Source: Eledone cirrhosa (Eukaryota). From it: a stretch of DNA of 64,000 nucleotides. The DNA lies in assembly GCA_964016885.1 (NCBI GenBank), contig OZ024744.1, positions 122,140,001 through 122,204,000 of the forward strand, written 5' to 3'. A model generated the notes under the pieces. It was not told where the DNA came from, did not search any database, and saw only the letters and a list, made by a program, of their open reading frames with translations. Below are positions 1-64,000 of the stretch, one piece after another. Both the position numbers and the translations under genes were made by a program. How positions within the stretch are numbered: the first letter of the stretch is position 1; the number at the start of each line of letters is the position of its first letter.

Positions 1-729
1 ACCCAGTCACTTTCATACTTCCTCAACACATGACCCAACTGTCCCACACTATCTCTCTTCACAACATCCATTACTACCTCTATTGCTCTCACCCAGTCAC
101 TTTTATCCTTCCTCAACACATGACCCAACCATCTCACACTATCTCTCTTCACAACATCCATCACTACCTCTATTCCTCTCACCCAGTCACTTTCATACTT
201 CCTCAACACATGACCCAACAATCTCACACCATCTCTCTTCACAACATCCATCACTACCTCTATTCCTCTCATCCAGTCACTTTCATACTTCCTCAACACA
301 TGACCCAACCATCTCACACTATCTCTCTTCGCAACATCCATCACTGCCTCTATTCCTCTCACCCAGTCACTTTTATACTTCCTCAACACATGACCCAACC
401 ATCTCACACTATCTCTCTTCACAACATCCATCACTACCTCTATTCCTCTCACCCAGTCACTTTTATACTTCCTCAACACATGACCCAACCATCTCACACT
501 ATCTCTCTTCACAACATCCATCACTAACTCTATTCACTCACCCAGTCACTTTTATCCTTCCTCAACACATGACCCAACCATCTCACACTATCTCTCTACA
601 CAACATCCATCACTACCTCTATTCCTCTCACCCAGTCACTTTTATACTTCCTCAACACATGACCCAACCATCTCACACTATCTCTCTTCACAACATCCAT
701 CACTACCTCTATTCCTCTCAGCCAGTCAC

Positions 730-2010
730 TTTTATCCTTCCTCAACACATGACCCAACCATCTCACACTATCTCCCTTTACAACATCCATCACTACCTCT
801 ATTCCTCTCACCCAGTCACTTTTATACTTCCTCAACACATGACCCAACCATCCCACACTATCTCTCTTCACAACATCCATCTCTACCTCTATTCCTCTCA
901 CCCAATCACTTTCATACTTCCTCAACACATGACCCAACCATCTCACACTATCTCCCTTTACAACATCCATCTCTACCTCTATTCCTTTCACCCAGTCACT
1001 TTTATACTTCCTCAACACATGACCCAACCATCCCACACTATCTCTCTTCACAACATCCATCTCTACCTCTATTCCTCTCACCCAGTCACTTTCATACTTC
1101 CTCAACACATGACCCAACCATCTCACACTATCTCCCTTTACAACATCCATCTCTACCTCTATTCCTCTCACCCAGTCACTTTTATCCTTCCTCAACACAT
1201 GACCCAACCATCTCACACTATCTCTCTTCACAACATCCATCACTACCTCTATTCACTCACCCAGTCACTTTTATCCTTCCTCAACACATGACCCAACCAT
1301 CTCACACTATCTCTCTACACAACATCCATCACTACCTCTATTCCTCTCACCCAGTCACTTTTATACTTCCTCAACACATGACCCAACCATCTCACACTAT
1401 CTCTCTTCACAACATCCATCACTACCTCTATTCCCTCACCCAGTCACTTTTATCCCTCCTCAACACATGACCCAACCATCTCACACTATCTCTCTTCGCA
1501 ACATCCATCACTACCTCTATTCCTCTCACCCAGTCACTTTTATAATTCCTCAACACATGACCCAACCATCCCACATTATCTCTCTTCACAACATCCATCT
1601 CTACCTCTATTCCTCTCACCCAGTCACTTTCATACTTCCTCAACACATGACCCAACCATCTCACACTATCTCCCTTTACAACATCCATCACTACCTCTAT
1701 TCCTCTCACCCAGTCACGTTTATACTTCCTCAACACATGACCCAACCATCCCACACTATCTCTCTTCACAACATCCATCTCTACCTCTATTCCTCTCACC
1801 CAGTCACTTTCATACTTCCCCAACACATGACCCAACCATCTCACACTATCTCCCTTTACAACATCCATCACTACCTCTATTCCTCTCACCCAGTCACTTT
1901 TATACTTCCTCAACACATGACCCAACCATCCCACACTATCTCTCTTCACAACATCCATCTCTACCTCTATTCCTCTCACCCAGTCACTTTCATACTTCCT
2001 CAACACATGA
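730..2010. repeat. Local 180-bp dimeric higher-order pattern (two alternating monomer types); seen again at about 4160-4610
   Basis: Monomers with 'ccatcccaca...catctctacc...tttcatac' alternate with monomers carrying 'tctccctttac...tttatac' at about 750-1200 and 1558-2007. Confidence 0.75.
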
Positions 2011-4705
2011 CCCAACCATCTCACACTATCTCTCTTCGCAACATCCATCACTACCTCTATTCACTCACCCAGTCACTTTTATCCTTCCTCAACACATGAC
2101 CCAACCATCTCACACTATCTCTCTTCACAACATCCATCACTACCTCTGTTCCTCTTACCCAGTCAAGTTTATCCTTCCTCAACACATGACCCAACCATCT
2201 CACACTATCTCTCTTCACAACATCCATCACTACCTCTATTCCTCTCACCCTGTCACTTTTATCCCTCCTCAACACATGACCAAACCATCTCACACTATCT
2301 CTCTTCACAACATCCATCACTACCTCTATTCCTTTCACCCAGTCACTTTTATCCTTCCTCAACACATGACCCAACCATCTCACACGATCACCCTTCACAA
2401 CATCCATCACTACCTCTATTCCTCTCACCCAGTCACTTTCATACTTCCTCAACACATGACCCAACAATCTCACACCATCTCTCTTCACAACATCCATCAC
2501 TACCTCTATTCCTCTCACCCAGTCACTTTCATACTTCCTCAACACATGTCCCAACCATCTCACACTATCTCTCTTCACAACATCCATCACTACCTGTATT
2601 CCCTCACCCAGTCACTTTTATCCCTCGTCAACACATGACCCAACCATCTCACACTATCTCTCTTCGCAACATCCATCACTACCTCTATTCCTCTCACCCA
2701 GTCACTTTTATACTTCCTCAACACATGACCCAACCATCTCACACTATCTCTCTTCACAACATCCATCACTACCTCTATTCCTCTCACCCAGTCACTTTTA
2801 TCCTTCCTCAACACATGACCCAACCATCTCACACTATCTCTCTTCACAACATCCATCACTACCTCTATTCACTCACCCAGTCACTTTCATCCTTCCTCAA
2901 CACATGACCCAACCATCTCACAATATCTCTCTACACAACATCCATCACTACCTCTATTCCTCTCACCCAGTCACTTTTATACTTCCTCAACACATGACCC
3001 AACCATCTCACACTATCTCTCTTCACAACATCCATCACTACCTATATTCCTCTCAGCCAGTCACTTTTATCCTTCCTCAACACATGACCCAACCATCTCA
3101 CACTATCTCCCTTTACAACATCCATCACTACCTCTATTCCTCTCACCCAGTCACTTTTATACTTCCTCAACACATGACCCAACCATCCCACACTATCTCT
3201 CTTCACAACATCCATCTCTACCACTATTCCTCTCAACCAGTCACTTTCATACTTCCTCAACACATGACCCAACCATCTCACACTATCTCCCTTTACAACA
3301 TCCATCTCTACCTCTATTCCTCTCACCCAGTCACTTTTATACTTCCTCAACACATGACCCAACCATCTCACACGATCACCCTTCACAACATCCATCACTA
3401 CCTCTATTCCTCTCACCCAGTCACTTTCATACTTCCTCAACACATGACCCAACAATCTCACACCATCTCTCTTCACAACATCCATCACTACCTCTATTCC
3501 TCTCACCCAGTCACTTTTATACTTCCTCAACACATGACCCAACCATCCCACACTATCTCTCTTCACAACATCCATCTCTACCTCTATTCCTCTCACCCAG
3601 TCACTTTCATACTTCCTCAACACATGACCCAACCATCTCACACTATCTCCCTTTACAACATCCATCTCTACCTCTATTCCTCTCACCCAGTCACTTTCAT
3701 ACTTCCTCAACACATGACCCAACCATCTCACACTATCTCCCTTGACAACATCCATCTCTACCTCTATTCCTCTCACCCAGTCACTTTTATCCTTCCTCAA
3801 CACATGACCCAACCATCTCACACTATCTCTCTTCACAACATCCATCACTACCTCTATTCACTCACCCAGTCACTTTTATCCTTCCTCAACACATGACCCA
3901 ACCATCTCACACTATCACTCTACACAACATCCATCACTACCTCTATTCCTCTCACCCAGTCACTTTTATACTTCCTCAACACATGACCCAACCATCTCAC
4001 ACTATCTCTCTTCACAACATCCATCACTACCTCTATTCCCTAACCCAGTCACTTTTATCCCTCCTCAACACATGACCCAACCATCTCACACTATCTCTCT
4101 TCGCAACATCCATCACTACCTCTATTCCTCTCACCCAGTCACTTTTATACTTCCTCAACACATGACCCAACCATCCCACACTATCTCTCTTCACAACATC
4201 CATCTCTACCTCTATTCCTCTCACCCAGTCACTTTCATACTTCCTCAACACATGACCCAACCATCTCACACTATCTCCCTTTACAACATCCATCACTACC
4301 TCTATTCCTCTCACCCAGTCACGTTTATACTTCCTCAACACATGACCCAACCATCCCACACTATCTCTCTTCACAACATCCATCTCTACCTCTATTCCTC
4401 TCACCCAGTCACTTTCATACTTCCTCAACACATGACCCAACCATCTCACACTATCTCCCTTTACAACATCCATCACTACCTCTATTCCTCTCACCCAGTC
4501 ACTTTTATACTTCCTCAACACATGACCCAACCATCCCACACTATCTCTCTTCACAACATCCATCTCTACCTCTATTCCTCTCACCCAGTCACTTTCATAT
4601 TTCCTCAACACATGACCCAACCATCTCACACTATCTCTCTTCGCAACATCCATCACTACCTCTATTCACTCACCCAGTCACTTTTATCCTTCCTCAACAC
4701 ATGAC
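1170..4705. repeat. Imperfect higher-order duplication, offset 2605 bp (29 monomers minus five 1-bp deletions): about 1170-2100 versus about 3775-4705
   Basis: ORF-track pairs 1288/3893, 1428/4033, 1467/4072 and 2096/4701 all differ by 2605. The shared rare variant 'gtcacgtttatac' occurs in both copies. Upstream markers (gccag at 721/3056) are offset by 2335. Confidence 0.85.
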
Positions 4706-7700
4706 CCAACCATCTCACACTATCTCTCTTCACAACATCCATCACTACCTCTATTCCTCTCACCCAGTCACTTTCATACTTCCTCAACACATGACCCAAC
4801 CATCTCACACTATCTCTCTTCACAACATCCATCACTACCTCTGTTCCTCTTACCCAGTCAAGTTTATCCTTCCTCAACACATGACGCAACCATCTCACAC
4901 TATCTCTCTTCACAACATCCATCACTACCTCTATTCCTCTCATCCAGTCACTTTTATCCTTCCTCAACACATGACCAAACCATCTCACACTATCTCTCTT
5001 CACAACATCCATCACTACCTCTATTCCTCTCACCCTGTCACTTTTATCCCTCCTCAACACATGACCAAACCATCTCACACTATCTCTCTTCACAACATCC
5101 ATCACTACCTCTATTCCTTTCACCCAGTCACTTTTATCCTTCCTCAACACATGACCCAACCATCTCACACGATCACCCTTCACAACATCCATCACTACCT
5201 CTATTGCTCTCACCCAGTCACTTTCATACTTCCTCAACACATGACCCAACCATCTCACACTATCTCTCTTCACAACATCCATCACTACCTCTGTTTCTCT
5301 CACCCAGTCACATTCATACTTCCTCAACACATGACCCAACCATCTCACACTATCTCCCTTCACAACATCCATTACTACCTCTATTGCTCTCACCCAGTCA
5401 ATTTTATCCTTCCTCAACACATGACCCAACCATCTCACACTATCTCTCTTCACAACATCCATCACTACCTCTATTCCTTTCACCCAGTCACTTTTATCCT
5501 TCCTCAACACATGACCCGACCATCTCACACTATCTCTCTTCACAACATCCATCACTACCTCTATTCCTCTCACCCGGTCACTTTTATCCTTCCTCAACAC
5601 ATGACCCAACCATCTCACACTATCTCTCTTCACAACATCCATCACTACCTCTATTCACTCACCCAGTCACTTTTATCCTTCCTCAACACATGACCCAACC
5701 ATCTCACACTATCTCTCTACACAACATCCATCACTACCTCTATTCCTATCACCCAGTCACATTCATACTTCCTCAACACAGGACCCAACCATCTCACACT
5801 ATCTCTCTTCACAACATCCATTACTACCTCTGTTCCTCTCACCCAGTCACATTCATACATCCTCAACATATGACCCAACCATCTCACACTATCTCTCTTC
5901 ACAACATCCATCACTACCTCCATTCCTCTCACCCAGTCACTTTCATACTTCCTCAACACATGACCCAACCATCTCACACTATCTCTCTTCACAACATCCA
6001 TCACTACCTCTATTCCTCTCACCCATTCACTTTCATACTTCCTCAACTCATGACCCAACCATCCCACAGTATCTCTCTTCACAACATCCATCACTACCTC
6101 TATTCCTCTCACCCAGTCACTTTTATCCTTCCTCAACACATGACCCAACCATCTCACACTATCTCTCTTCACAACATCCATCACTACCTCTATTCCTTTC
6201 ACCCAGTCACTTTTATCCTTCCTCAACACATGACCCAACCATCTCACACGATCACCCTTCACAACATCCATCACTACCTCTATTGCTCTCACCCAGTCAC
6301 TTTCATACTTCCTCAACACATGACCCAACCATCTCACACTATCTCTCTTCACAACATCCATCACTACCTCTGTTTCTCTCACCCAGTCACATTCATACTT
6401 CCTCAACACATGACCCAACCATCTCACACTATCTCTCTTCACGACATCCATCACTACCTCTGTTCCTCTTACCCAGTCAAGTTTATCCTTCCTCAACACA
6501 TGACCCAACCATCTCACACTATCTCTCTTCACAACATCCATTACTACCTGTATTCCTCTCACCCAGTCACTTTCATACTTCCTCAACACATGACCCAACC
6601 ATCTCACACTATCTCCCGTCACAACATCCATTACTACCTCTATTGCTCTCACCCAGTCAATTTTACCCTTCCTCAACACATGACCCAACCATCTCACACT
6701 ATCTCTCTTCACAACATCCATCACTACCTCTATTCCTTTCACCCAGTCACTTTTATCCTTCCTCAACACATGACCCGACCATCTCACACTATCTCTCTTC
6801 ACAACATCCATCACTACCTCTATTCCTCTCACCCGGTCACTTTTATCCTTCCTCAACACATGACCCAACCATCTCACACTATCTCTCTTCACAACATCCA
6901 TCACTACCTCTATTCACTCACCCAGTCACTTTTATCCTTCCTCAACACATGACCCAACCATCTCACACTATCTCTCTACACAACATCCATCACTACCTCT
7001 ATTCCTATCACCCAGTCACATTCATACTTCCTCAACACAGGACCCAACCATCTCACACTATCTCTCTTCACAACATCCATTACTACCTCTGTTCCTCTCA
7101 CCCAGTCACATTCATACATCCTCAACATATGACCCAACCATCTCACACTATCTCTCTTCACAACATCCATCACTACCTCCATTCCTCTCACCCAGTCACT
7201 TTCATACTTCCTCAACACATGACCCAACCATCTCACACTATCTCTCTTCACAACATCCATCACTACCTCTATTCCTCTCACCCATTCACTTTCATACTTC
7301 CTCAACTCATGACCCAACCATCCCACAGTATCTCTCTTCACAACATCCATCACTACCTCTATTCCTCTCACCCAGTCACTTTTATCCTTCCTCAACACAT
7401 GACCCAACCATCTCACACTATCTCTCTTCACAACATCCATCACTACCTCCATTCCTCTCAGCCAGTCACATTCATACTTCCTCAACACATGACCCAACCA
7501 TCTCACACTATCTCTCTTCACAACATCCATCACTACCTCTGTTCCTCTTACCCAGTCAAGTTTATTCTTCCTCAACACATGACGCAACCATCTCACACTA
7601 TCTCCCTTCACAACATCCATCACTACCACTATTCCTCTCACCCAGTCACTTTTATCCTTCCTCAACACATGACCAAACCATCTCACACTATCTCTCTTCA

Positions 7701-10700
7701 CAACATCCATCACTACCTCTATTCCTCTCATCCAGTCACTTTTATCCTTCCTCAACACATGACCAAACCATCTCACACTATCTCTCTTCACAACATCCAT
7801 CACTACCTCTATTCCTCTCACCCTGTCACTTTTATCCTTCCTCAACACATGACCCAACCATCTCACACTATCTCTCTTCACAACATCCATCACTACCTCT
7901 ATTCCTTTCACCCAGTCACTTTTATCCTTCCTCAACACATGACCCAACCATCTCACACGATCTCCCTTCACAACATCCATCACTACCTCTATTCCTCTCA
8001 CCCAGTCACTTTCATACTTCCTCAACACATGACCCAACCATCTCACACTATCTCTCTTCACAACATCCATCACTACCTCTGTTTCTCTCACCCAGTCACA
8101 TTCATACTTCCTCAACACATGACCCAACCATCTCACACTATCTCTCTTCACAACATCCATCACTACCTCTGTTCCTCTTACCCAGTCAAGTTTATCCTTC
8201 CTCAACACATGACCCAACCATCTCACCCTATCTCTCTTAACAACATCCATTACTACCTGTATTCCTCTCACCCAGTCACTTTCATACTTCCTCAACAAAT
8301 GACCCAACCATCTCACACTATCTCACTTCACAACATCCATTACTACCTCTATTGCTCTCACCCAGTCAATTTTATCCTTCCTCAACACATGACCCAACCA
8401 TCTCACACTATCTCTCTTCACAACATCCATCACTACCTCTTATTCCTCTCACCCAGTCACTTTCATACTTCCTCAACACATGACCCAAACATCTCACACT
8501 ATCTCTCTTCACAACATCCATTACTACCTCTATTGCTCTCACCCAGTCACTTTTATCCTTCCTCAACACATGACCCAACCATCTCACACTATCTCTCTTC
8601 ACAACATCCATCACTACCTCTATTCCTCTCACCCAGTCACTTTCATACTTCCTCAACACATGACACAACCATCTCACACTATCTCTCTTCACAACATCCA
8701 TCACTACCTCTATTCCTCTCACCCAGTCACTTTTATCCTTCCTCAACACATGACCCAACCATCTCACACTATCTCTCTTCACAACATCCATCACTACCTC
8801 TATTCCTCTCACCCGGTCACTTTTATCCTTCCTCAACACATGACCCAACCATCTCACACTATCTCTCTTCACAACATCCATCACTACCTCTATTCACTCA
8901 CCCAGTCACTTTAATCCTTCCTCAACACATGACCCAACCATCTCACACTATCTCTCTACACAACATCCATCACTACCTCTATTCCTATCACCCAGTCACA
9001 TTCATACTTCCTCAACACAGGACCCAACCATCTCACACTATCTCTCTTCACAACATCCATCACTACCTCTGTTCCTCTCACCCAGTCACATTCATACATC
9101 CTCAACACATGACCCAACCATCTCACACTATCTCTCTTCACAACATCCATCACTACCTCTATTCCTCTCACCCAGTCACTTTCATACTTCCTCAACACAT
9201 GACCCAACCATCCCACAGTATCTCTCTTCACAACATCCATCACTACCTCTATTCCTCTCACCCAGTCACTTTCATACTTCCTCAACATATGACCCAACCA
9301 TCTCACACTATCTCTCTTCACAACATCCATCACTACCTCTGTTCCTCTCACCCAGTCACTTTTATCCTTCCTCAAGACATGATCCAACCATCTCACACTA
9401 TCTCTCCTCACAACATCCATCACTACCTCTATTCCTCTCACCCAGTCACTTTTATCCTTCCTCAACACATGACCCAACCATCTCACACTATCTCTCTTCA
9501 CGACATCCATCACTACCTCTGTTCCTCTTACCCAGTCAAGTTTATCCTTCCTCAACACATGACCCAACCATCTCACACTATCTCTCTTCACAACATCCAT
9601 CACTACCTCTGTTCCTCTTACCCAGTCAAGTTTATCCTTCCTCAACACATGACCCAACCATCTCACACTATCTCTCTTCACAACATCCATTACTACCTGT
9701 ATTCCTCTCTCCCAGTCACTTTCATACTTCCTCAACACATGACCCAACCATCTCACACTATCTCCCTTCACAACATCCATTACTACCTCTATTGCTCTCA
9801 CCCAGTCAATTTTATCCTTCCTCAACACATGACCCAACCATCTCACACTATCTCTCTTCACAACATCCATCACTACCTCTATTCCTTTCACCCAGTCACT
9901 TTTATCCTTCCTCAACACATGACCCGACCATCTCACACTATCTCTCTTCACAACATCCATCACTACCTCTATTCCTCTCACCCGGTCACTTTTATCCTTC
10001 CTCAACACATGACCCAACCATCTCACACTATCTCTCTTCACAACATCCATCACTACCTCTATTCACTCACCCAGTCACTTTTATCCTTCCTCAACACATG
10101 ACCCAACCATCTCACACTATCTCTCTACACAACATCCATCACTACCTCTATTCCTATCACCCAGTCACATTCATACTTCCTCAACACAGGACCCAACCAT
10201 CTCACACTATCTCTCTTCACAACATCCATCACTACCTCTGTTCCTCTCACCCAGTCACATTCATACATCCTCAACATATGACCCAAGCATCTCACACTAT
10301 CTCTCTTCACAACATCCATCACTACCTCTATTCCTCTCACCCTGTCACTTTTATCCTTCCTCAACACATGACCCAACCATCTCACACTATCTTTCTTCAC
10401 AACATCCATCACTACCTCTATTCCTTTCACCCAGTCACTTTTATCCTTCCTCAACACATGACCCAACCATCTCACATGATCTCCCTTCACAAGATCCATC
10501 ACTACCTCTATTCCTCTCACCCAGTCACTTTCATACTTCCTCAACACATGACCCAACCATCTCACACTATCTCTCTTCACAACATCCATCACTACCTCTG
10601 TTTCTCTCACCCAGTCACATTCATACTTCCTCAACACATGACCCAACCATCTCACACTATCTCTCTTCACAACATCCATCACTACCTCTGTTCCTCTTAC

Positions 10701-12170
10701 CCAGTCAAGTTTATCCTTCCTCAACACATGACCCAACCATCTCACACTATCTCTCTTCACAACATCCATTACTACCTGTATTCCTCTCACCCAGTCACTT
10801 TCATACTTCCTCAACACATGACCCAACCATCTCACACTATCTCACTTCACAACATCCATTACTACCTCTATTGCTCTCACCCAGTCAATTTTATCCTTCC
10901 TCAACACATGACCCAACCATCTCACACTATCTCTCTTCACAACATCCATCACTACCTCTATTCCTTTCACCCAGTCACTTTTATCCTTCCTCAACACATG
11001 ACCCGACCATCTCACACTATCTCTCTTCACAACATCCATCACTACCTCTGTTTCTCTCACCCAGTCACATTCTTACTTCCTCAACTCATGACCCAACCAT
11101 CTCACACTATCTCTCTTCACAACATCCATCACTACCTCTTATTCCTCTCACCCAGTCACTTTCATACTTCCTCAACACATGACCCAACCATCTCACACTA
11201 TCTCTCTTCACAACATCCATTACTACCTCTATTGCTCTCACCCAGTCACTTTTATCCTTCCTCAACACATGACCCAACCATCTCACACTATCTCTCTTCA
11301 CAACATCCATCACTACCTCTATTCCTCTCACCCGGTCACTTTTATCCTTCCTCAACACATGACCCAACCATCTCACACTATCTCTCTTCACAACATCCAT
11401 CACTACCTCTATTCACTCACCCAGTCACTTTAATCCTTCCTCAACACATGACCCAACCATCTCATACTATCTCTCTACACAACATCCATCACTACCTCTA
11501 TTCCTATCACCCAGTCACATTCATACTTCCTCAACACAGGACCCAACCATCTCACACTATCTCTCTTCACAACATCCATCACTACCTCTGTTCCTCTCAC
11601 CCAGTCACATTCATACATCCTCAACACATGACCCAACCATCTCACACTATCTCTCTTCACAACATCCATCACTACCTCTATTCCTCTCACCCAGTCACTT
11701 TCATACTTCCTCAACACATGACCCAACCATTCCACAGTATCTCTCTTCACAACATCCATCACTACATCTATTCCTCTCACCCATTCACTTTCATACTTCC
11801 TCAACATATGACCCAACCATCTCACACTATCTCTCTTCACAACATCCATCACTACCTCTGTTCCTCTCACCCAGTCACTTTTATCCTTCCTCAAGACATG
11901 ATCCAACCATCTCACACTATCTCTCCTCACAACATCCATCACTACCTCTATTCCTCTCACCCAGTCACTTTTATCCTTCCTCAACACATGACCCAACCAT
12001 CTCACACTATCTCTCTTCACAACATCCATCACTACCTCCATTCCTCTCAGCCAGTCACATTCATACTTCCTCAACACATGACCCAACCATCTCACACTAT
12101 TTCTCTTCACAACATCCATCACAACCTCTATTCCTCTTACCCAGTCACTTTTTTTCCTTCCTGAACACAT
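4700..12170. repeat. Variable-length higher-order repeat block (units of 14, 22, 13 and 15 monomers)
   Basis: The marker cassette 'tattcactcaccc'(-1 bp) > 'ctctacac' > 'cctatcac' > 'cacaggacc' > 'catacatcc' recurs at about 5651, 6910, 8890, 10059 and 11409. Spacings are 1259, 1980, 1169 and 1350 bp. Confidence 0.8.
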
Positions 12171-12339
12171 GACCCAACCATCTCACACTATCTCACTTCA
12201 CAACATCCATTACTACCTCTATTGCTCTCATCCAGTCACTTTTATCCTTCCTCAACACATGACCCAACCATCTCACACTATCTCTCTTCACAACATCCAT
12301 CACTACCTCTATTCATCTCACCCAGTCACATTCATACTA

Positions 12340-18300: not shown

Positions 18301-18900
18301 CCATCTCACACTATCTCTCTTTACAACATCCATCACTACCTCTATTCCTCTCACCCAGTCACATTCATACTTCCTCAACACATGACCCAACCATCTCACA
18401 CTATCTCTCTTCACGACATCCATCACTACATCTATTCCTCTCACCCAGTCACTTTTATCCTTCCTCAACACATGATCCAACCATCTCACACTATCTCTCC
18501 TCACAACATCCATCACTACCTCTATTCCTCTCACCCAGTCACTTTTATCCTTACTCAACACATGACCCAACCATCTCACACTATCTCTCTTCACAACATC
18601 CATCACTACCTCCATTCCTCTCAGCCAGTCACATTCATACTTCCTCAACACATGACCCAACCATCTCACACTATCTCTCTTCACAACATCCATCACTACC
18701 TCTATTCCTCTCACACAGTCACTTTCATACTTCCTCAACACATGACCCAACCATCTCACACTATCTCTCTTCACAACATCCATCACAACCTCTATTCCTC
18801 TCACCCAGTCACTTTTATCCTTCCTCAACACATGACCCAACCATCTCACACGATCACTCTTCACAACATCCATCACTACCTCTATTCCTCTCACCCAGTC
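12340..18900. repeat. About three copies of a 23-24-monomer higher-order unit (offsets 2160 and 2070 bp), indel-free
   Basis: 'ttcctcaaaacatgacccaaccatgtcacactg' at 12341 and 14501 (2160). 'tcacgacata' at 14811 and 16881 (2070). ORF pairs 15429/17499 and 15619/17689 (2070). Confidence 0.85.
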
Positions 18901-49000: not shown

Positions 49001-49171
49001 CTCAACACATGACCCAACTATCTCACACTATCTCTCTTCACAACATCCATCACTACCTCTATTCCTCTCACCCAGTCACTTTTATCCTTCCTCAAAACAT
49101 GACTAAACCATCTCACACTATCTCTCTTCACAACATCCATCACTACCTCTATTCCTCTCACCCAGTCACTT
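36855..49171. repeat. Near-identical duplication, offset 6218 bp (69 monomers +8 bp): about 36855-42953 versus about 43073-49171
   Basis: Every ORF from 37023/43241 to 42701/48919 is paired at offset 6218 with matching translations. The indels sum to +3+1+1-1+3+1 = +8. Confidence 0.93.
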
Positions 49172-52100
49172 TCATACTGCCTCAACCCATGACCCAACCA
49201 TCTCACACTATCTCTTTTCACAACATCCATCACTACATCTGTTCCTCTCACCCAGTCACTTTTATACTTCCTCAACACATGACCCAACCATATCACACTA
49301 TCTCTCTTCACAACATCCATCACTACCTCTATTCCTCTCACCCAGTCACTTTTATCCTTCCTCAACACATGACCCAACCATCTTACACTATCTCTCTTCA
49401 CAACATCCATCACTACTTCTACTCCTCTCACCTAGTCACTTTCAACCTTCCTCAACACATGACCCAACCATCTCACACTATCTCTCTTCACAACATCCTT
49501 CACTACCTCTATTCCTCTCACCAAGTCACTTTCATACTGCCTCAACCCATGACCCAACCATCTCACACTATCTCTCTTCACAACATCCATCACTACATCT
49601 GTTCCTCTCACCCAGTCACTTTTATACTTCCTCAACACATGACCCAACCATCTCACAATATCTCTCTTCACAACATCCATCACTACCTCTATTCCTCTCA
49701 CCCAGTTACTTTTATCCTTCCTCAACACATGACCCAACCATCTCACACTATCTCTCTTCACAACATCCATCACTACCTCTACTCCTCTCACCTAGTCACT
49801 TTCAACCTTCCTCAACACATGACCCAACCATCTGACACTATCTCACTTCACAACATCCATCACCACCTCTATTCCTCTCACCCAGTCACTTTTATCCTTC
49901 CTCAACACATGACCCAACCATCTCACACTATCTCTCTTCACAACATCCATCACCACCTCTATTCCTCTCACCCAGTCACTTTTATCCTTCCTCAACACAT
50001 GACCTAACCATCTGACACTATCTCTCTTCACAACATCCATCACCACCTCTATTCCTCTCACCCAGTCACTTTTATCCGTCCTCAACACATGACCCAACCA
50101 TCTCATACTATCTCTCTTCACAACATCCATCACTACCTCTATTCCTCTCACCCAGTCACTTTTATCCTTCCTCAACACATGACCCAACCATCTCACACTA
50201 TCTCTCTTCACAACATCCATCACTACCACTATTCCTCTCACCCAGTCACTTTTATCCTTCCTCAAAACATGACTAAACCATCTCACACTATCTCTCTTCA
50301 CAACATCCATCACTACCTCTATTCCTCTCACCCAGTCACTTTCATACTGCCTCAACCCATGACCCAACCATCTCACACTATCTCTTTTCACAACATCCAT
50401 CACTACATCTGTTCCTCTCACCCAGTCACTTTTATACTTCCTCAACACATGACCCAACCATCTCACACTATCTCTCTTCACAACATCCATCACTACCTCT
50501 ATTCCTCTCACCCAGTCACTTTTATCCTTCCTCAACACATGACCCAACCATCTTACACTATCTCTCTTCACAACATCCATCACTACCTCTATTCCTCTCA
50601 ACCAGTCACTTTTATCCTTCCTCAACACATGACCCAACCATCTCACACTATCTCTCTTCACAACATCCATCACCACCTCCATTCCTCTCACCCAGTCACT
50701 TTTATCCTTCCTCAACACATGACCCAACCATCTCACACTATCTCTCTTCACACATCCATCACCACCTCTATTCCTCTCACCCAGTCACTTTTATCCTTCC
50801 TCAACACATGACCCAACCATCTCACACTATCTCTCTTCACAACATACATCACCACCTCTATTCCTCTCACCCAATCACTTTTATCCTTCCTCAACACACG
50901 ACCTAACCATCTGACACTATCTCTCTTCAAAACATCCATCACTACCTCTATTCCTATCAGCCAGTCACTTTTATCCTTCCTCAACACATGACCCAACCAT
51001 ATCACACTATCTCTCTTCACAACATCCACCACTACCTCTATTCCTCTCACCCAGTCACTTTCATACTTCTTCAACACATGACCCAACCATCTCATACTAT
51101 CTCTCTTCACAACATCCATCACTACCTCTATTCCTCTCACTCAGTCACTTTTATACTTCCTCAACACATGACCCAACCATCTCACAATATCTCTCTTCAC
51201 AACATCCATCACTACCTCTATTCTTCCCACCTCCCAGTCACTTTTATCCTTTCTCAACACATGACCCAACCATCTCACACTATCTCTCTTCACAACATCC
51301 ATCACTACCTCTATTCCTCTCACCCAGTCACTTTCATACTTCCTCAACACATGACCCAACCATCTCATACTATCTCTCTTCACAACATCCATCACTACCT
51401 CTATTCCTCTCACTCAGTCACTTTTATACTTCCTCAACACATGACTCAACCATCTCATACTATCTCTCTTCACAACATCCATCACTACCTCTATTCCTCT
51501 CACCCAGTCACTTTTATCCTTCCTCAACACATGACCCAACAATCTCACACTATCTCTCATCACAACATCCATCACTACCTCTATTCCTCTCACCCAGTCA
51601 CTTTTATCCTTCCTCAACACATGACCTAACCATCTCACACTATCTCTCTTCAACAACATCCATCACTACCTCTATTCCTCTCACCCAGTCACTTTCATAC
51701 TTCCTCAACACATGACCCAACCATCTCATACTATCTCTCTTCACAACATCCATCACTACCTCTATTCCTCTCACTCAGTCACTTTTATACTTCCTCAACA
51801 CATGACCCAACCATCTCACACTATCTCTCTTCACAACATCCATCACTACCTCTATTCCTCTCACCCAGTCACTTTCATAATTCCTCAACACATGACCCAA
51901 CCATCTCACGCTATCTCTCTTCACAATATCCATCACTACCTCTATTCCTCTCACCCAGTCACTTTTATCCTTCCTCAATACATGACCCAACCATCTCACA
52001 CTATCTCTCTTCACAACATCCATCACTACTTCTACTCCTCTCACCTAGTCACTTTCAACCTTCCTCAACACATGACCCAACCATCTCACACTATCTCTCT

Positions 52101-53108
52101 TCACAACATCCTTCACTACCTCTATTCCTCTCACCCAGTCACTTTTATCCTTCCTCAAAACATGACTAAACCATCTCACACTATCTCTCTTCACAACATC
52201 CATCACTACCTCTATTCCTCTCACCCAGTCACTTTCATACTGCCTCAACCCATGACCCAACCATCTCACACTATCTCTCTTCACAACATCCATCACTACC
52301 TCTACTCCTCTCACCTAGTCACTTTCAACCTTCCTCAACACATGACCCAACCATCTGACACTATCTCACTTCACAACATCCATCACCACCTCTATTCCTC
52401 TCACCCAGTCACTTTTATCCTTCCTCAACACATGACCCAACCATCTCACACTATCTCTCTTCACAACATCCATCACCACCTCTATTCCTCTCACCCAGTC
52501 ACTTTTATCCTTCCTCAACACATGACCTAACCATCTGACACTATCTCTCTTCACAACATCCATCACCACCTCTATTCCTCTCACCCAGTCACTTTTATCC
52601 GTCCTCAACACATGACCCAACCATCTCATACTATCTCTCTTCACAACATCCATCACTACCTCTATTCCTCTCACCCAGTCACTTTTATCCTTCCTCAACA
52701 CATGACCCAACTATCTCACACTATCTCTCTTCACAACATCCATCACTACCTCTATTCCTCTCACCCAGTCACTTTTATCCTTCCTCAAAACATGACTAAA
52801 CCATCTCACACTATCTCTCTTCACAACATCCATCACTACCTCTATTCCTCTCACCCAGTCACTTTCATACTGCCTCAACCCATGACCCAACCATCTCACA
52901 CTATCTCTTTTCACAACATCCATCACTACATCTGTTCCTCTCACCCAGTCACTTTTATACTTCCTCAACACATGACCCAACCATATCACACTATCTCTCT
53001 TCACAACATCCATCACTACCTCTATTCCTCTCACCCAGTCACTTTTATCCTTCCTCAACACATGACCCAACCATCTTACACTATCTCTCTTCACAACATC
53101 CATCACTA
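45695..53108. repeat. Near-identical tandem duplication, unit 3693 bp (41 monomers +3 bp), overlapping the second 6218-bp copy
   Basis: ORF pairs from 45739/49432 to 49018/52711 differ by 3693. The indels sum to -1+3+1 = +3. The junction monomer is at about 49385-49415. Confidence 0.92.
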
Positions 53109-53679
53109 CCTCTATTCCTCTCAACCAGTCACTTTTATCCTTCCTCAACACATGACCCAACCATCTCACACTATCTCTCTTCACAACATCCATCACCACC
53201 TCCATTCCTCTCACCCAGTCACTTTTATCCTTCCTCAACACATGACCCAACCATCTCACACTATCTCTCTTCACACATCCATCACCACCTCTATTCCTCT
53301 CACCCAGTCACTTTTATCCTTCCTCAACACATGACCCAACCATCTCACACTATCTCTCTTCACAACATCCATCACCACCTCTATTCCTCTCACCCAATCA
53401 CTTTTATCCTTCCTCAACACACGACCTAACCATCTGACACTATCTCTCTTCAAAACATCCATCACTACCTCTATTCCTATCAGCCAGTCACTGTTATCCT
53501 TCCTCAACACATGACCCAACCATATCACACTATCTCTCTTCACAACATCCATCACTACCTCTATTCCTCTCACCCAGTCACTTTCATACTTCCTCAACAC
53601 ATGACCCAACCATCTCATACTATCTCTCTTCACAACATCCATCACTACCTCTATTCCTCTCACTCAGTCACTTTTATAC

Positions 53680-56600
53680 TTCCTCAACACATGACCCAAC
53701 CATCTCACAATATCTCTCTTCACAACATCCATCACTCCCTCTATTCTTCCCACCTCCCAGTCACTTTTATCCTTTCTCAACACATGACCCAACCATCTCA
53801 CACTATCTCTCTTGACAACATCCATCACTACCTATAATCCTCTCAGCCAGTCACTTTCATACTTCCTCAACACATGACTCAACCATCTCACACTACCTCT
53901 ATTCCTCTCACCCAGTCACTTTTATCCTTCCTCAACACATGACCCAACAATCTCACACTATCTCTCATCACAACATCCATCACTACCTCTATTCATCTCA
54001 CCCAGTCACTTTTATCCTTCCTCAACACATGACCTAACCATCTCACACTATCTCTCTTCAACAACATCCATCACTATCTCTATTCCTCTCACCCAGTCAC
54101 TTTCATAATTCCTCAACACATGACCCAACCATCTCACGCTATCTCTCTTCACAATATCCATTACTACCTCTATTCGTCTCACCCAGTCACTTTTATCCTT
54201 CCTCAATACATGACCCAACCATCTCACACTATCTCTCTTCACAACATCCATCACTACCTCTATTCCTCTCACCCAGTTACTTTTATCCTTCCTCAACACA
54301 TGACCCAACCATCTCACACTATCTCTCTTCACAACATCCATCACTACCTCTACTCCTCTCACCTAGTCACTTTCAACCTTCCTCAACACATGACCCAACC
54401 ATCTGACACTATCTCACTTCACAACATCCATCACCACCTCTATTCCTCTCACCCAGTCACTTTTATCCTTCCTCAACACATGACCCAACCATCTCACACT
54501 ATCTCTCTTCACAACATCCATCACCACCTCTATTCCTCTCACCCAGTCACTTTTATCCTTCCTCAACACATGACCTAACCATCTGACACTATCTCTCTTC
54601 ACAACATCCATCACCACCTCTATTCCTCTCACCCAGTCTCTTTTATCCGTCCTCAACACATGACCCAACCATCTCATACTATCTCTCTTCACAACATCCA
54701 TCACTACCTCTATTCCTCTCACCCAGTCACTTTTATCCTTCCTCAACACATGACCCAACCATCTCACACTATCTCTCTTCACAACATCCATCACTACCTC
54801 TATTCCTCTCACCCAGTCACTTTTATCCTTCCTCAAAACATGACTAAACCATCTCACACTATCTCTCTTCACAACATCCATCACTACCTCTATTCCTCTC
54901 ACCCAGTCACTTTCATACTGCCTCAACCCATGACCCAACCATCTCACACTATCTCTTTTCACAACATCCATCACTACATCTGTTCCTCTCACCCAGTCAC
55001 TTTTATACTTCCTCAACACATGACCCAACCATCTCACACTATCTCTCTTCACAACATCCATCACTACCTCTATTCCTCTCACCCAGTCACTTTTATCCTT
55101 CCTCAACACATGACCCAACCATCTTACACTATCTCTCTTCACAACATCCATCACTACCTCTATTCCTCTCAACCAGTCACTTTTATCCTTCCTCAACACA
55201 TGACCCAACCATCTCACACTATCTCTCTTCACAACATCCATCACCACCTCCATTCCTCTCACCCAGTCACTTTTATCCTTCCTCAACACATGACCCAACC
55301 ATCTGACACTATCTCTCTTCACACATCCATCACCACCTCTATTCCTCTCACCCAGTCACTTTTATCCTTCCTCAACACATGACCCAACCATCTCACACTA
55401 TCTCTCTTCACAACATCCATCACCACCTCTATTCCTCTCACCCAATCACTTTTATCCTTCCTCAACACACGACCTAACCATCTGACACTATCTCTCTTCA
55501 AAACATCCATCACTACCTCTATTCCTATCAGCCAGTCACTTTTATCCTTCCTCAACACATGACCCAACCATATCACACTATCTCTCTTCACAACATCCAT
55601 CACTACCTCTATTCCTCTCACCCAGTCACTTTCATACTTCCTCAACACATGACCCAACCATCTCATACTATCTCTCTTCACAACATCCATCACTACCTCT
55701 ATTCCTCTCACTCAGTCACTTTTATACTTCCTCAACACATGACCCAACCATCTCACAATATCTCTCTTCACAACATCCATCACTACCTCTATTCCTCCCA
55801 CCTCCCAGTCACTTTTATCCTTTCTCAACACATGACCCAACCATCTCACACTATCTCTCTTGACAACATCCATCACTACCTCTAATCCTCTCAGCCAGTC
55901 ACTTTCATACTTCCTCAACACATGAACCAACCATCTCACACTATCTCTCTTCACAACATCCATCACTACCTCTATTCCTCTCACCCAGTCACTTTTATCC
56001 TTCCTCAACACATGACCCAACAATCTCACACTATCTCTCTTCACAACATCCATCACTACCTCTATTCCTCTCACCCAGTCACTTTTATCCTTCCTCAACA
56101 CATGACCTAACCATCTCACACTATCTCTCTTCAACAACATCCATCACTATCTCTATTCCTCTCACCCAGTCACTTTCATAATTCCTCAACACATGACCCA
56201 ACCATCTCACGCTATCTCTCTTCACAATATCCATCACTACCTCTATTCCTCTCACCCAGTCACTTTTATCCTTCCTCAATACATGACCCAACCATCTCAC
56301 ACTATCTCTCTTCACAACATCCATCACTACCTCTACTCCTCTCAACTAGTCACTTTCAACCTTCCTCAACACATGACCCAACCATCTCACACTATCTCTC
56401 TTCACAACATCCTTCACTACCTCTATTCCTCTCACCCAGTCACTTTTATCCTTCCTCAAAACATGACTAAACCATCTCACACTATCTCTCTTCACAACAT
56501 CCATCACTACCTCTATTCCTCTCACCCAGTCACTTTCATACTGCCTCAACCCATGACCCAACCATCTCACACTATCTCTCTTCACAACATCCATCACTAC

Positions 56601-59600
56601 ATCTGTTCCTCTCACCCAGTCACTTTTATACTTCCTCAACACATGACCCAACCATCTCACAATATCTCTCTTCACAACATCCATCACTACCTCTATTCCT
56701 CTCACCCAGTTACTTTTATCTTTCCTCAACACATGACCCAACCATCTCACACTATCTCTCTTCACAACATCCATCACTACCTCTACTCCTCTCACCTAGT
56801 CACTTTCAACCTTCCTCAACACATGACCCAACCATCTGACACTATCTCACTTCACAACATCCATCACCACCTCTATTCCTCTCACCCAGTCACTTTTATC
56901 CTTCCTCAACACATGACCCAACCATCTCACACTATCTCTCTTCACAACATCCATCACCACCTCTATTCCTCTCACCCAGTCACTTTTATCCTTCCTCAAC
57001 ACATGACCCAACCATCTCACAATATCTCTCTTCACAACATCCATCACTACCTCTATTCTTCCCACCTCCCAGTCACTTTTATCCTTTCTCAACACATGAC
57101 CCAACCATCTCACACTATCTCTCTTGACAACATCCATCACTACCTATAATCCTCTCAGCCAGTCACTTTCATACTTCCTCAACACATGACTCAACCATCT
57201 CACACTACCTCTATTCCTCTCACCCAGTCACTTTTATCCTTCCTCAACACATGACCCAACAATCTCACACTATCTCTCATCACAACATCCATCACTACCT
57301 CTATTCCTCTCACCCAGTCACTTTTATCCTTCCTCAACACATGACCTAACCATCTCACACTATCTCTCTTCAACAACATCCATCACTATCTCTATTCCTC
57401 TCACCCAGTCACTTTCATAATTCCTCAAAACATGACCCAACCATCTCACGCTATCTCTCTTCACAATATCCATTACTACCTCTATTCGTCTCACCCAGTC
57501 ACTTTTATCCTTCCTCAATACATGACCCAACCATCTCACACTATCTCTCTTCACAACATCCATCACTACCTCTATTCCTCTCACCCAGTTACTTTTATCC
57601 TTCCTCAACACATGACCCAACCATCTCACACTATCTCTCTTCACAACATCCATCACTACCTCTACTCCTCTCACCTAGTCACTTTCAACCTTCCTCAACA
57701 CATGACCCAACCATCTTACACTATCTCACTTCACAACATCCATCACCACCTCTATTCCTCTCACCCAGTCACTTTTATCCTTCCTCAACACATGACCCAA
57801 CCATCTCACACTATCTCTCTTCACAACATCCATCACCACCTCTATTCCTCTCACCCAGTCACTTTTATCCTTCCTCAACACATGACCTAACCATCTGACA
57901 CTATCTCTCTTCACAACATCCATCACCACCTCTATTCCTCTCACCCAGTCTCTTTTATCCGTCCTCAACACATGACCCAACCATCTCATACTATCTCTCT
58001 TCACAACATCCATCACTACCTCTATTCCTCTCACCCAGTCACTTTTATCCTTCCTCAACACATGACCCAACCATCTCACACTATCTCTCTTCACAACATC
58101 CATCACTACCTCTATTCCTCTCACCCAGTCACTTTTATCCTTCCTCAAAACATGACTAAACCATCTCACACTATCTCTCTTCACAACATCCATCACTACC
58201 TCTATTCCTCTCACCCAGTCACTTTCATACTGCCTCAACCCATGACCCAACCATCTCACACTATCTCTTTTCACAACATCCATCACTACATCTGTTCCTC
58301 TCACCCAGTCACTTTTATACTTCCTCAACACATGACCCAACCATCTCACACTATCTCTCTTCACAACATCCATCACTACCTCTATTCCTCTCACCCAGTC
58401 ACTTTTATCCTTCCTCAACACATGACCCAACCATCTTACACTATCTCTCTTCACAACATCCATCACTACCTCTATTCCTCTCAACCAGTCACTTTTATCC
58501 TTCCTCAACACATGACCCAACCATCTCACACTATCTCTCTTCACAACATCCATCACCACCTCCATTCCTCTCACCCAGTCACTTTTATCCTTCCTCAACA
58601 CATGACCCAACCATCTCACACTATCTCTCTTCACACATCCATCACCACCTCTATTCCTCTCACCCAGTCACTTTTATCCTTCCTCAACACATGACCCAAC
58701 CATCTCACACTATCTCTCTTCACAACATCCATCACCACCTCTATTCCTCTCACCCAATCACTTTTATCCTTCCTCAACACACGACCTAACCATCTGACAC
58801 TATCTCTCTTCAAAACATCCATCACTACCTCTATTCCTATCAGCCAGTCACTTTTATCCTTCCTCAACACATGACCCAACCATATCACACTATCTCTCTT
58901 CACAACATCCATCACTACCACTATTCCTCTCACCCAGTCACTTTCATACTTCCTCAACACATGACCCAACCATCTCATACTATCTCTCTTCACAACATCC
59001 ATCACTACCTCTATTCCTCTCACTCAGTCACTTTTATACTTCCTCAACACATGACCCAACCATCTCACAATATCTCTCTTCACAACATCCATCACTACCT
59101 CTATTCCTCCCACCTCCCAGTCACTTTTATCCTTTCTCAACACATGACCCAACCATCTCACACTATCTCTCTTGACAACATCCATCACTACCTCTAATCC
59201 TCTCAGCCAGTCACTTTCATACTTCCTCAACACATGAACCAACCATCTCACACTATCTCTCTTCACAACATCCATCACTACCTCTATTCCTCTCACCCAG
59301 TCACTTTTATCCTTCCTCAACACATGACCCAACAATCTCACACTATCTCTCTTCACAACATCCATCACTACCTCTATTCCTCTCACCCAGTCACTTTTAT
59401 CCTTCCTCAACACATGACCTAACCATCTCACACTATCTCTCTTCAACAACATCCATCACTATCTCTATTCCTCTCACCCAGTCACTTTCATAATTCCTCA
59501 ACACATGACCCAACCATCTCACGCTATCTCTCTTCACAATGTCCATCACTACCTCTATTCCTCTCACCCAGTCACTTTTATCCTTCCTCAATACATGACC

Positions 59601-60303
59601 CAACCATCTCACACTATCTCTCTTCACAACATCCATCACTACCTCTACTCCTCTCAACTAGTCACTTTCAACCTTCCTCAACACATGACCCAACCATCTC
59701 ACACTATCTCTCTTCACAACATCCTTCACTACCTCTATTCCTCTCACCCAGTCACTTTTATCCTTCCTCAAAACATGACTAAACCATCTCACACTATCTC
59801 TCTTCACAACATCCATCACTACCTCTATTCCTCTCACCCAGTCACTTTCATACTGCCTCAACCCATGACCCAACCATCTCACACTATCTCTCTTCACAAC
59901 ATCCATCACTACATCTGTTCCTCTCACCCAGTCACTTTTATACTTCCTCAACACATGACCCAACCATCTCACAATATCTCTCTTCACAACATCCATCACT
60001 ACCTCTATTCCTCTCACCCAGTTACTTTTATCTTTCCTCAACACATGACCCAACCATCTCACACTATCTCTCTTCACAACATCCATCACTACCTCTACTC
60101 CTCTCACCTAGTCACTTTCAACCTTCCTCAACACATGACCCAACCATCTGACACTATCTCACTTCACAACATCCATCACCACCTCTATTCCTCTCACCCA
60201 GTCACTTTTATCCTTCCTCAACACATGACCCAACCATCTCACACTATCTCTCTTCACAACATCCATCACCACCTCTATTCCTCTCACTCAGTCACTTTTA
60301 TCC
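53680..60303. repeat. Tandem duplication, unit 3312 bp (37 monomers -18 bp), marked by a 65-bp truncated monomer
   Basis: ORF pairs from 54048/57360 to 56346/59658 differ by 3312. The indels sum to +3-25+1-1+3+1 = -18. The 25-bp deletion junction is at 53891 and 57203. Confidence 0.92.
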
Positions 60304-63300
60304 TTCCTCAACACATGACCTAACCATCTGACACTATCTCTCTTCACAACATCCATCACCACCTCTATTCCTCTCACCCAGTCACTTTTATCCGTCCTCA
60401 ACAGATGACCCAACCATCTCATACTATCTCTCTTCACAACATACATCACTACCTCTATTCCTCTCACCCAGTCACTTTTATCCTTCCTCAACACATGACC
60501 CAACCATCTCACACTATCTCTCTTCACAACATCCATCACTACCTCTATTCCTCTCACCCAGTCACTTTTATCCTTCCTCAAAACATGACTAAACCGTCTC
60601 ACACTATCTCTCTTCACAACATCCATCACTACCTCTATTCCTCTCACCCAGTCACTTTCATACTGCCTCAACCCATGACCCAACCATCTCACACTATCTC
60701 TTTTCACAACATCCATCACTACATCTGTTCCTCTCACCCAGTCACTTTTATACTTCCTCAACACATGACCCAACCATCTCACACTATCTCTCTTCACAAC
60801 ATCCATCACTACCTCTATTCCTCTCACCCAGTCACTTTTATCCTTCCTCAACACATGACCCAACCATCTCACACTATCTCTCTTCAAAACATCCATCACC
60901 ACCTCCATTCCTCTCACCCAGTCACTTTTATCCTTCCTCAACACATGACCTAACCATCTCACACTATCTCTCTTCACACATCCATCACCACCTCTATTCC
61001 TCTCACCGAGTCACTTTTATCCTTCCTCAACACATGACCCAACCATCTCACACTATCTCTCTTCACAACATCCATCACCACCTCTATTCCTCTCACCCAA
61101 TCACTTTTATCCTTCCTCAACACACGACCTAACCATCTGACACTATCTCTCTTCAAAACATCCATCACTACCTCTATTCCTATCAGCCAGTCACTTTTAT
61201 CCTTCCTCAACACATGACCCAACCATATCACACTATCTCTCTTCACAACATCCATCACTACCTCTATTCCTCTCACTCAGTCACTTTTATACTTCCTCAA
61301 CACATGACCCAACCATCTCACAATATCTCTCTTCACAACATCCATCACTACCTCTATTCCTCCCACCTCCCAGTCACTTTTATCCTTTCTCAACACATGA
61401 CCCAACCATCTCACACTATCTCTCTTGACAACATCCATCACTACCTCTAATCCTCTCAGCCAGTCACTTTCATACTTCCTCAAAACATGACTAAACCATC
61501 TCACACTATCTCTCTTCAACAACATCCATCACTATCTCTATTCCTCTCACCCAGTCACTTTCATACTGCCTCAACCCATGACCCAACCATCTCACACTAT
61601 CTCTCTTCACAACATCCATCACTACATCTGTTCCTCTCACCCAGTCACTTTTATACTTCCTCAACACATGACCCAACCATCTCACACTATCTCTCTTCAC
61701 AACATCCATCACTACCTCTATTCCTCTCACCCAGTTACTTTTATCTTTCCTCAACACATGACCCAACCATCTCACACTATCTCTCTTCACAACATCCATC
61801 ACTACCTCTACTCCTCTCACCTAGTCACTTTCAACCTTCCTCAACACATGACCCAACCATCTGACACTATCTCACTTCACAACATCCATCACCACCTCTA
61901 TTCCTCTCACCCAGTCACTTCTATCCTTCCTCAACACATGACCCAACCATCTCACACTATCTCTCTTCACAACATCCATCACCACCTCTATTCCTCTCAC
62001 CCAGTCACTTTTATCCTTCCTCAACACATGACCCAACCATATCACACTATCTCTCTTCACAACATCCATCATTACCTTTATTGCTCTCACCCAGTCACTT
62101 TCATACTTCCTCAACACATGACCCAACCATCTCATACTATCTCTCTTCACAACAACCATCACTACCTCTATTCCTCTCACCCAGTCACTTTTATCCTACC
62201 TCAACACATGACCCAACCATCTCACACTATCTCTCTTCACAACATCCATCACTAACTCTATTCCTCTCACCCAGTCACTTTTATCCTTCCTCAACACATG
62301 ACCTAACCATCTCACACTATCTCTCTTCACAACATCCATCATTACCTCTATTGCTCTCACCCAGTCACTTTCATACTTCCTCAACACATGACCCAACCTT
62401 CTCACACTATCTCTCTTCACAACATCCATCACTACCTCTATTCCTCTCACCCAGTCACTTTCATACTTCCTCAACACATGACCCAACCATCTCACACTAT
62501 CTCTCTTCACAACATCCATCACTACCTCTATTCCTCTCACCCAGTCACTTTTATCCTTCCTCAACACATGACCCAACCATCTCACACTATCTCTCTTCAC
62601 AACATCCATCACTACCTCTATTCCTCACACCCAGTCACTTTTATCCTTCCTCAACACATAACTCAACCATCTCACACTATCTCTCTTCACAACATCCATC
62701 ACTACCTCTATTCCTCTCACCCAGTCACTTTCATACTTCCTCAACACATGACCCACCTATCTCACACTATCCCTCTTCACAACATCCATCACTACCTCTA
62801 TTCCCCTCACCCAGTCACTTTCATACTGCCTCAACACATGACCCAACAATCTCTCACTATCTCTCTTCACAACATCCATCACTACCTCTATTCCTCTCAC
62901 CCAGTCACTTTCATACTTCCTCAACACATGACCCAACCATCTCACACTATCTCTCTTCACAACATCCATCACTACCTCTATTCCTCTCACCCAGTCACTT
63001 TTATCCTTCCTCAATACATAACCTAACCATCTGACACTATCTCTCTTCACAACATCCATCACTACATCTGTTCCTCTCACCCAGTCACTTTCATACTTCC
63101 TCAACACATGAACCAACCATCTCACACTATCTCTCTTCACAACATCCATCACTACATTTAATCCTCTCAGCCAGTCAATTTCATACTGCCTCAACACATG
63201 ACCCAACCATCTCTCACTATCTCTCTTCACAACATCCATCACTACCTCTATTCCTCTCACCCAGTCACTTTCATACTTCCTCAACACATGACCCAACCAT

Positions 63301-64000
63301 CTCACGCTATCTCTCTTCACAACATCCATCACTACCTCTATTCCTCTCACCCCATAACTTTTATCCTTCCTCAACACATGACCTAACCATCTCACACTAT
63401 CTCTCTTCACAACATCCATCACTACCTCTATTCCTCTCACCCAGTCACTTTTATACTTCCTCAACACATGACCTAACCATCTGACACTATCTCTCTTCAC
63501 AACATCCATCACTACCTCTATTCCTCTCACCCAGTCACTTTTATCCTTCCTCAACACATGACCTAACCATCTCACACTATCTCTCTTCAACAACATCCAT
63601 CACTATCTCTATTCCTCTCACCCAGTCACTTTCATAATTCCTCAACACATGCCCCAATCATCTCACACTATCCCTCTTCACAACATCCATCACTACCTCT
63701 ATTCCTCTCACCCAGTCACTTTTATACTTCCTCAACACATGACCCAACCATCTCACGCTATCTCTCTTCACAATATCCATCACTACCTCTATTCCTCTCA
63801 CCCAGTCACTTTTATCCTTCCTCAACACATGACCCAACCATCTCACACTATCTCTCTTCACAACATCCATCACTACATCTACTCCTCTCACCTAGTCACT
63901 TTCAACCTTCCTCAACACATGACCCAACCATCTCACACTATCTCTCTTCACAACATCCTTCACTACCTCTATTCCTCTCAGCCAGTCACTTTCATACTTC

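Follow-up and report, generated by a model that had tools for sequence, protein, structure and literature searches.

How does the first duplication of a long tandem unit come about? This question, which is open, is raised by a stretch of 64,000 nucleotides of Eledone cirrhosa (assembly GCA_964016885.1, contig OZ024744.1, here C28, positions 122,140,001 to 122,204,000), called the window in what follows, in which all 64,000 of the 64,000 bases belong to a 90-bp tandem array with an extreme strand skew. A first-pass annotation of the window had proposed that this satellite was built from a 30-codon fragment of the open reading frame (ORF) of a long interspersed nuclear element (LINE), and we regard its derivation from a LINE coding slice as practically certain. 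One genome here holds a series that stems from one 90-bp LINE slice: single copies, dimers, arrays that reach at most about 10 kb, and a satellite of 0.94 Mb, with units that can be dated, so that the initiation step becomes directly testable. To one account of that step we give an even chance: template slippage of the reverse transcriptase (RT) at insertion would seed two or three units, and amplification at the DNA level would later build the arrays. This account starts from what is observed, namely the parent family, the junction and its recurrence, the age pattern of the units, and founder units of the parent type at the 5' edge of one of the two arrays of the satellite, array B.

The window and its basic unit can be described as follows.

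1..64000 (C28:122,140,001-122,204,000), minus strand: interior of array B of the 90-bp satellite, about 711 units
87..176, minus strand: one monomer in its natural phase, identical to the window majority; 30 codons of the C-terminal region of the LINE ORF
168..185, minus strand: monomer junction, where LINE position 90 is joined back to position 1, with GGA microhomology

The monomer at positions 87-176 of the minus strand translates to GIEVVMDVVKRDSVRWLGHVLRKDKSDWVR, and it equals the majority of the 635 ungapped 90-bp units of the window. The claim that each monomer reads this peptide is right for the majority unit but not for each unit: 94 of the 635 ungapped units contain a stop codon, and pieces of indel-bearing units account for 143 of the 778 aligned segments. 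Ungapped units are on average 3.8% away from the majority, and 6.6% from each other (n = 635); no strong higher-order repeat is present in the window, the distance between units being 5.7-6.7% at every lag from 1 to 79.

The core 22-mer of the monomer also matches dispersed sites of the genome. Copies fetched from 20 such loci read ...MMGIE.VMNVVKRN.MRWLGHVLRKDESDWVRGVMEMNVEGSRGRGRPRKTW, preceded by RSAMIYGS...RMV.WMSG...ERRTNNEL and followed by GVMEMNVEGSRGRGRPRKTW, these flanking readings being summaries of degenerate copies. Two copies, L107 and L108, are collinear with protein P0031, which bears the RT domain RVT_1 (E-value 2e-33) and is 82% identical to the LINE family over 319 residues downstream; L108 is also collinear with residues 116-969 of protein P0034, its N-terminal part included. 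The longer protein relatives carry RVT_1, and the relatives P0037, P0039 and P0055 combine Exo_endo_phos, RVT_1 and a PHD-like domain in a single ORF of 1,036-1,083 amino acids. The majority sequence of the LINE family agrees with the monomer at 81 of 90 bases, and one of the nine differing bases varies within the satellite; single LINE copies are 72-87% identical to the monomer (n = 39) and lie about 15% from the family majority. The parent family is thus old, broken and dispersed.

Its copies have a variable 5' truncation, with ends spread from +109 to -687 relative to the slice in 29 copies, and in five copies (L082, L090, L092, L100 and L108) TTG-type 3' tails lie about 260 bases after the slice start, which fits a short 3' untranslated region (UTR) with a microsatellite-like end, as in RTE-type elements. 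An RT domain, a common 3' end and a variable 5' truncation make the parent a non-LTR (long terminal repeat) retrotransposon. It likely belongs to the RTE clade, judging from its architecture and from the RLRW-type motif associated with that clade; none of the hits bore an RTE name. Much of what the first-pass annotation expected of the parent was found: dispersed LINE copies in which the 90-bp slice matches once and collinearly, RT lying upstream and RGRP downstream of it; a slice that ends before RGRP, into which the parent majority continues; and a natural junction between DWVR and GIE. Some candidates were discarded along the way. The host's commoner LINE beside array B, whose collinear motif is distant, is not the parent; the pattern formed by the monomer end and Lys/Arg-Cys codons has no match, the actual continuation being GVMEM; and a peptide search of the genome returned satellite units only among the 150 of 14,271 candidates that were scored.

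The LINE origin read from the 30-residue peptide is also borne out by protein searches. At E-values of at most 0.001, 25 of 1.84 billion proteins match the peptide, and 24 of these 25, all read by eye, resemble one and the same C-terminal stretch of a LINE, with an RGRP-type motif after it in those that are long enough; one match, P0015, was set aside as an unrelated repeat. The concern that shuffled monomers might score equally well can be dismissed: against 120 related proteins, a set gathered via relatives of the peptide and hence not independent, the monomer scores 60.8 bits, and none of 500 dinucleotide shuffles reaches this score, the best attaining 30.4. No Pfam family matches the peptide, and NCBIfam yields sub-threshold RT matches only. 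Among the relatives, the last 100 or so residues of P0028, a hagfish RNF168-like isoform in UniRef, are the C-terminus of the LINE family, 74% identical to the family here; this is either an exonised LINE or a mis-annotation. This protein and others at 76-82% identity hint at horizontal transfer or at very slow change. Proteins P0011 and P0004, which come from other sources, have the C-terminal motif region twice, and duplication near the motif may occur in other LINE families.

Was the slice captured once, as the first-pass annotation had supposed? It was not: dozens of loci have the slice in duplicate, and the junctions are of several kinds. An 18-mer that spans the monomer junction is present at at least 45 distinct loci, counted by hand, among the first 100 of 5,400 genome matches. 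The first 41 of these 45 loci form a junction-selected set, in which 39 contain a real back-jump from position 90 to position 1; 19 junction types are seen in all, that is, 18 besides 90-to-1, and at least two types coexist within one copy at 18 of the 41 loci. The main junction has three exact bases of microhomology (GGA), or six with G-T wobble, and period-90 crossovers fall at six points of one imperfect repeat: 79, 82, 85, 89, 90 and 94. A 99-bp-type junction pattern yields 91 matches at 14 loci, three of which were examined.

Duplications also turn up when loci are picked by other means. Three of 13 loci picked as single 22-mer matches have a duplicated slice. Among 54 copies chosen by their upstream or downstream flank (L099-L123 and L165-L193; L164, being the query, is excluded), five have back-jumps landing at -15..30, versus four elsewhere (rate ratio 16, p = 2e-4), and 90-to-1 is still the commonest junction (L181, L190 and probably L173). 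Short deletions are also present in the slice zone of these flank-chosen copies, and 28 of 39 small arrays keep their 3' tail. Several loci deserve mention in their own right. At L214:2582-10000 (C3:129.41 Mb), an array of 86-87-bp units, about 8-10 kb long, is made from the same slice, with a 99-bp junction and an internal deletion; at L168:12-1238 (C3 near 348.17 Mb), about 30 units of 41 bp form a minisatellite that comes from another slice of the same LINE (-124 to -84) and stands at the copy's 5' end. Near position 4380 of L097, a 99-bp array starts directly inside an ATG-type microsatellite that matches the ATGATG upstream of the slice, which suggests homology-guided 5' joining.

The age of the duplications can be estimated from the divergence between neighbouring units, computed without the columns fixed by the search pattern. 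Neighbours differ by 19% in dimers (11 loci), 16% in trimers (12 loci), 12.5% in 4-5-mers (11 loci) and 3.8% in arrays of at least six units (6 loci), and unrelated LINE copies differ by 21%. The divergence within dimers being close to that of unrelated copies, the first duplication is nearly as old as the insertion itself. Shared derived alleles amount to 17% in dimers, 17% in trimers, 33% in 4-5-mers and 79% in longer arrays, against 9% in unrelated copies; low divergence together with high allele sharing indicates that amplification into long arrays came later and began with a unit that had already mutated. The megabase satellite, whose distance from the parent equals that of one old unit, fits late amplification. 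Duplication seems also linked to truncation: the copy starts within -39..90 at 26 of 39 junction loci and in 9 of 25 unduplicated copies (p = 0.02).

The satellite itself forms two arrays on C28. Array A, on the plus strand, runs from about 121,048,799 to 121,464,024, or about 415 kb; array B, on the minus strand, from about 121,801,281 to 122,325,938, or about 525 kb, and contains the window. In this genome of 3.0 Gb, the interiors were sampled over 89 of 415 kb (A) and 171 of 524 kb (B), and all sampled stretches are at least 99% monomer, in head-to-tail arrays longer than 100 kb, a length proper to satellite DNA; no monomer was found in 14 of 14 ten-kb samples of the 337-kb spacer between them. 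In the genome, a 35-mer specific to the satellite matches 1,434 times on the plus strand and 2,190 times on the minus strand, the first listed match being at the start of array A; these counts are close to the 1,442 and 2,068 predicted from the two arrays, which thus hold nearly all of the satellite, about 10,400 units. These units are homogenised: in 28 of 28 samples they are 2.3-4.3 bases from the monomer, versus 10-12 from the parent.

No LINE sequence, upstream or downstream, adjoins the array ends (4 of 4 examined), although the first-pass annotation had looked to them for a flanking element with RT upstream and RGRP downstream; units with parent alleles are found at the 5' edge of array B. 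There, the outermost units start at position 12 and have the parent alleles at most diagnostic sites; the second unit is interrupted by a 548-bp insertion of other repeats, and beyond that unit the satellite alleles are fixed. Array A opens with a partial unit in which some bases are of the parent type too, but which is deleted and mixed. The flank of array A is single-copy. A variant at monomer position 70 has a frequency of about 0.2-0.3 through most of array A and 0.4-0.7 in array B, highest at both ends of B; these differing frequencies indicate that the two arrays drifted apart.

Other observations concern the arrays and their chromosome. Two variant units of the window are identical to each other.

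53826..53969, minus strand: short 65-bp unit, a 25-bp deletion variant
57138..57281, minus strand: second 65-bp variant unit, identical to the first and 3,312 bp from it

Their 3,312-bp spacing points to a likely, recent block duplication within the array. Between TA microsatellites 1.3 kb upstream of array A (L044:7374-7486) lies a long perfect inverted repeat with arms of about 50 bp, which resembles by eye a miniature inverted-repeat transposable element. Finally, C28, at 136.5 Mb, exceeds C5 (134.7 Mb), and the remaining contigs seen follow the order of size. Sex chromosomes are often listed out of size order in assemblies; if C28 is one, the satellite would be sex-linked.

How could these pieces fit together? 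Under the slippage account, reverse transcription would proceed 3' to 5' along the RNA and stall near slice position 1; the end of the complementary DNA (cDNA) would re-pair some 80-100 nt back within an imperfect purine-rich repeat, ATGATGGGAAT-like upstream and GTGATGGAAAT-like downstream, and the slice would then be copied again, often just before the 5' truncation of the copy. A founder would later gather about eight private changes before unequal exchange or gene conversion multiplied one of its units, and a portion of the array would be inverted or moved 337 kb away, giving the two arrays of C28. A bolder version, tentative and somewhat doubtful, has the RT of the LINE stuttering like a telomerase at one internal site and recopying 90-99 nt several times during insertion, so that about one copy in ten would be born a mini-array; one such seed would have become a megabase satellite specific to one chromosome, perhaps as the centromere or heterochromatin block of a candidate sex chromosome.

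Several results weigh against slippage of the enzyme, which is read from sequence patterns and to which we would assign neither more nor less than half of our belief. Across the 19 junction types, exact microhomology does not exceed the length expected by chance (1.1 vs 1.0), the flanking repeat shares first place among 82 windows with others, and RNA folding near the slice is not unusual (z from -1.4 to 0.6). The hotspot zone -15..30 was chosen after the data had been seen. The link with truncation fades to 18 of 28 versus 9 of 25 (p = 0.056) with tailed copies alone, and there is no significant clustering of 5' ends at the zone (7 of 29, p = 0.15). The 3' tail of the founder LINE was not found at the array ends. 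Moreover, LINE position 156 is an A in none of 23 junction loci versus 14 of 42 others, with a nominal p = 0.001 that falls short of the corrected bar for 753 tests, and with query bias excluded; this skew hints at a subfamily, as do the 17% of derived alleles shared by dimers and trimers, versus 9% in unrelated copies.

A subfamily is what one would expect if one or a few source elements had acquired a 90- or 99-bp in-frame duplication that their retrotransposition then dispersed, with the other junctions and all long arrays as later products of DNA-level events. This would account for position 156 and for the excess of shared alleles, the equal age of dimer units fits too, as does the rank of 90-to-1 as commonest junction even in flank-chosen copies, and in-frame units could leave the ORF of the source open. 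However, none of the 753 allele tests, over 251 flank columns, passes correction, 10 of the 19 junction types are out of frame, and 19 types with differing combinations at 18 of the 41 loci would need many sources; we find this explanation rather unlikely. Early slippage at the DNA level, a route that reviews describe, in their accessible parts, for minisatellites derived from transposable elements (PMC6947457, PMC3389668), is suggested by the imperfect repeat on either side of the unit (10 of 19 bases agree at lag 90, with a second register at lag 99), and by the short deletions of the zone. Yet such slippage should occur at all ages, and dimers are nearly as diverged as unrelated copies; the main junction offers just three exact bases, equally good repeats elsewhere in the LINE are not hotspots, and duplications tend toward the truncated 5' end. 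It is therefore unlikely to have made the first duplications.

There is also the thought that the array is a functional coding repeat, whose frame is kept because a peptide polymer is made or selected; this is extremely improbable. Stop-free runs do reach 1,032 codons (window) and 866 codons (array A), and per possible change, amino-acid replacements are a little less frequent than silent changes (5.5 vs 7.8), but stop codons arise as often as silent changes do (7.6 vs 7.8), hence the peptide is not under selection. Besides the stops already counted, frameshifted units recur, and the fixed differences from the parent alter 6 of the 30 residues. Codon periodicity alone favours in-frame lags (2.0% vs 1.2-1.4% of 10-mers), and the 9 of 19 junction types that are in frame yield p = 0.15. 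There is thus no purifying selection on the reading frame, the peptide is without function, and the in-frame state, in which the first-pass annotation saw a special feature of the satellite, is no product of selection.

Is the satellite peculiar to one organism? Sequencing data of organism A contain both the satellite and parent-type sequence (X1, X23); among the runs listed as holders, none is of RNA. Organisms B-F show a collapsed, near-identical monomer at depth 9-83, which we take as trace DNA rather than as a sign that species have the satellite in common, since the raw Hi-C run of organism E has no monomer read in the sample of about 1 in 100 of the run that was read.

Satellites that hold LINE ORF sequence are already known, and this class is therefore not new: the accessible part of one review lists HinfI of chicken (CR1 ORF2 and 3' UTR), PROsat of Phodopus and Pvc 20 of seals (both L1 ORF2), and the rye satellite E900, which holds a gag fragment (PMC9659126). 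All are, like the C28 satellite, tandem repeats made from the coding sequence of a retrotransposon. What is new here is that the satellite consists of nothing but a LINE coding slice, that its intermediates form a full series, and that duplication recurs at a hotspot; in the literature searched, which left out most subscription journals as well as the Repbase and Dfam collections, there is no description of the C28 satellite or of RT slippage seeding a satellite. The review also notes that there is no conclusive evidence that particular parts of transposable elements are preferred (PMC9659126). In the known cases, as far as its accessible part tells, the ORF is a part of the monomer, with 88% of PROsat matching a small region (PMC9659126); the C28 monomer, in contrast, is ORF from end to end, matching it collinearly and gap-free, and the genome has, alongside the megabase array, arrays of the same slice from dimers up to 10 kb.

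The parent resembles RTE-clade LINEs such as Octopus RTE-2_OV (PMC9115989) and Bov-B (PMC13295347), for which the available portions of the sources describe a single long ORF with an endonuclease, an RT and a zinc-finger-like segment, and a microsatellite-like 3' tail; the likeness is one of architecture, and the parent is old and broken. The RTs of R2 and L1 continue cDNA synthesis after a change of template position, in the excerpts available, by jumping to target DNA or to other RNAs (PMC2912911), whereas the jump proposed here would go backwards on the same RNA, repeatedly, at one internal site. Microhomology deletions are described, in the part of the source at hand, for Hebe (PMC2861651).

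Also comparable are the minisatellites of Alu and other transposable elements: there too, according to the accessible parts of two reports, internal segments stand in tandem, mostly as two units, with long arrays coming later, and with hotspots in AluS and LTR12 (PMC3389668, PMC6947457). The standard model of initiation invokes short flanking repeats (PMC6947457, in the part available); the two standard models explain 6% of the tandem repeats of transposable-element origin in humans, and initiation during retrotransposition has been proposed for such repeats (PMC3389668, likewise in part). In the Haber-Louis model, the unit lies between direct repeats of 5-10 bp, and the main C28 junction has three exact bases, six with wobble, plus an imperfect longer repeat. 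What sets the C28 case apart from the minisatellites of Alu and other elements is that a LINE coding slice came to fill about 0.94 Mb at one locus, with a first step dated near the insertion.

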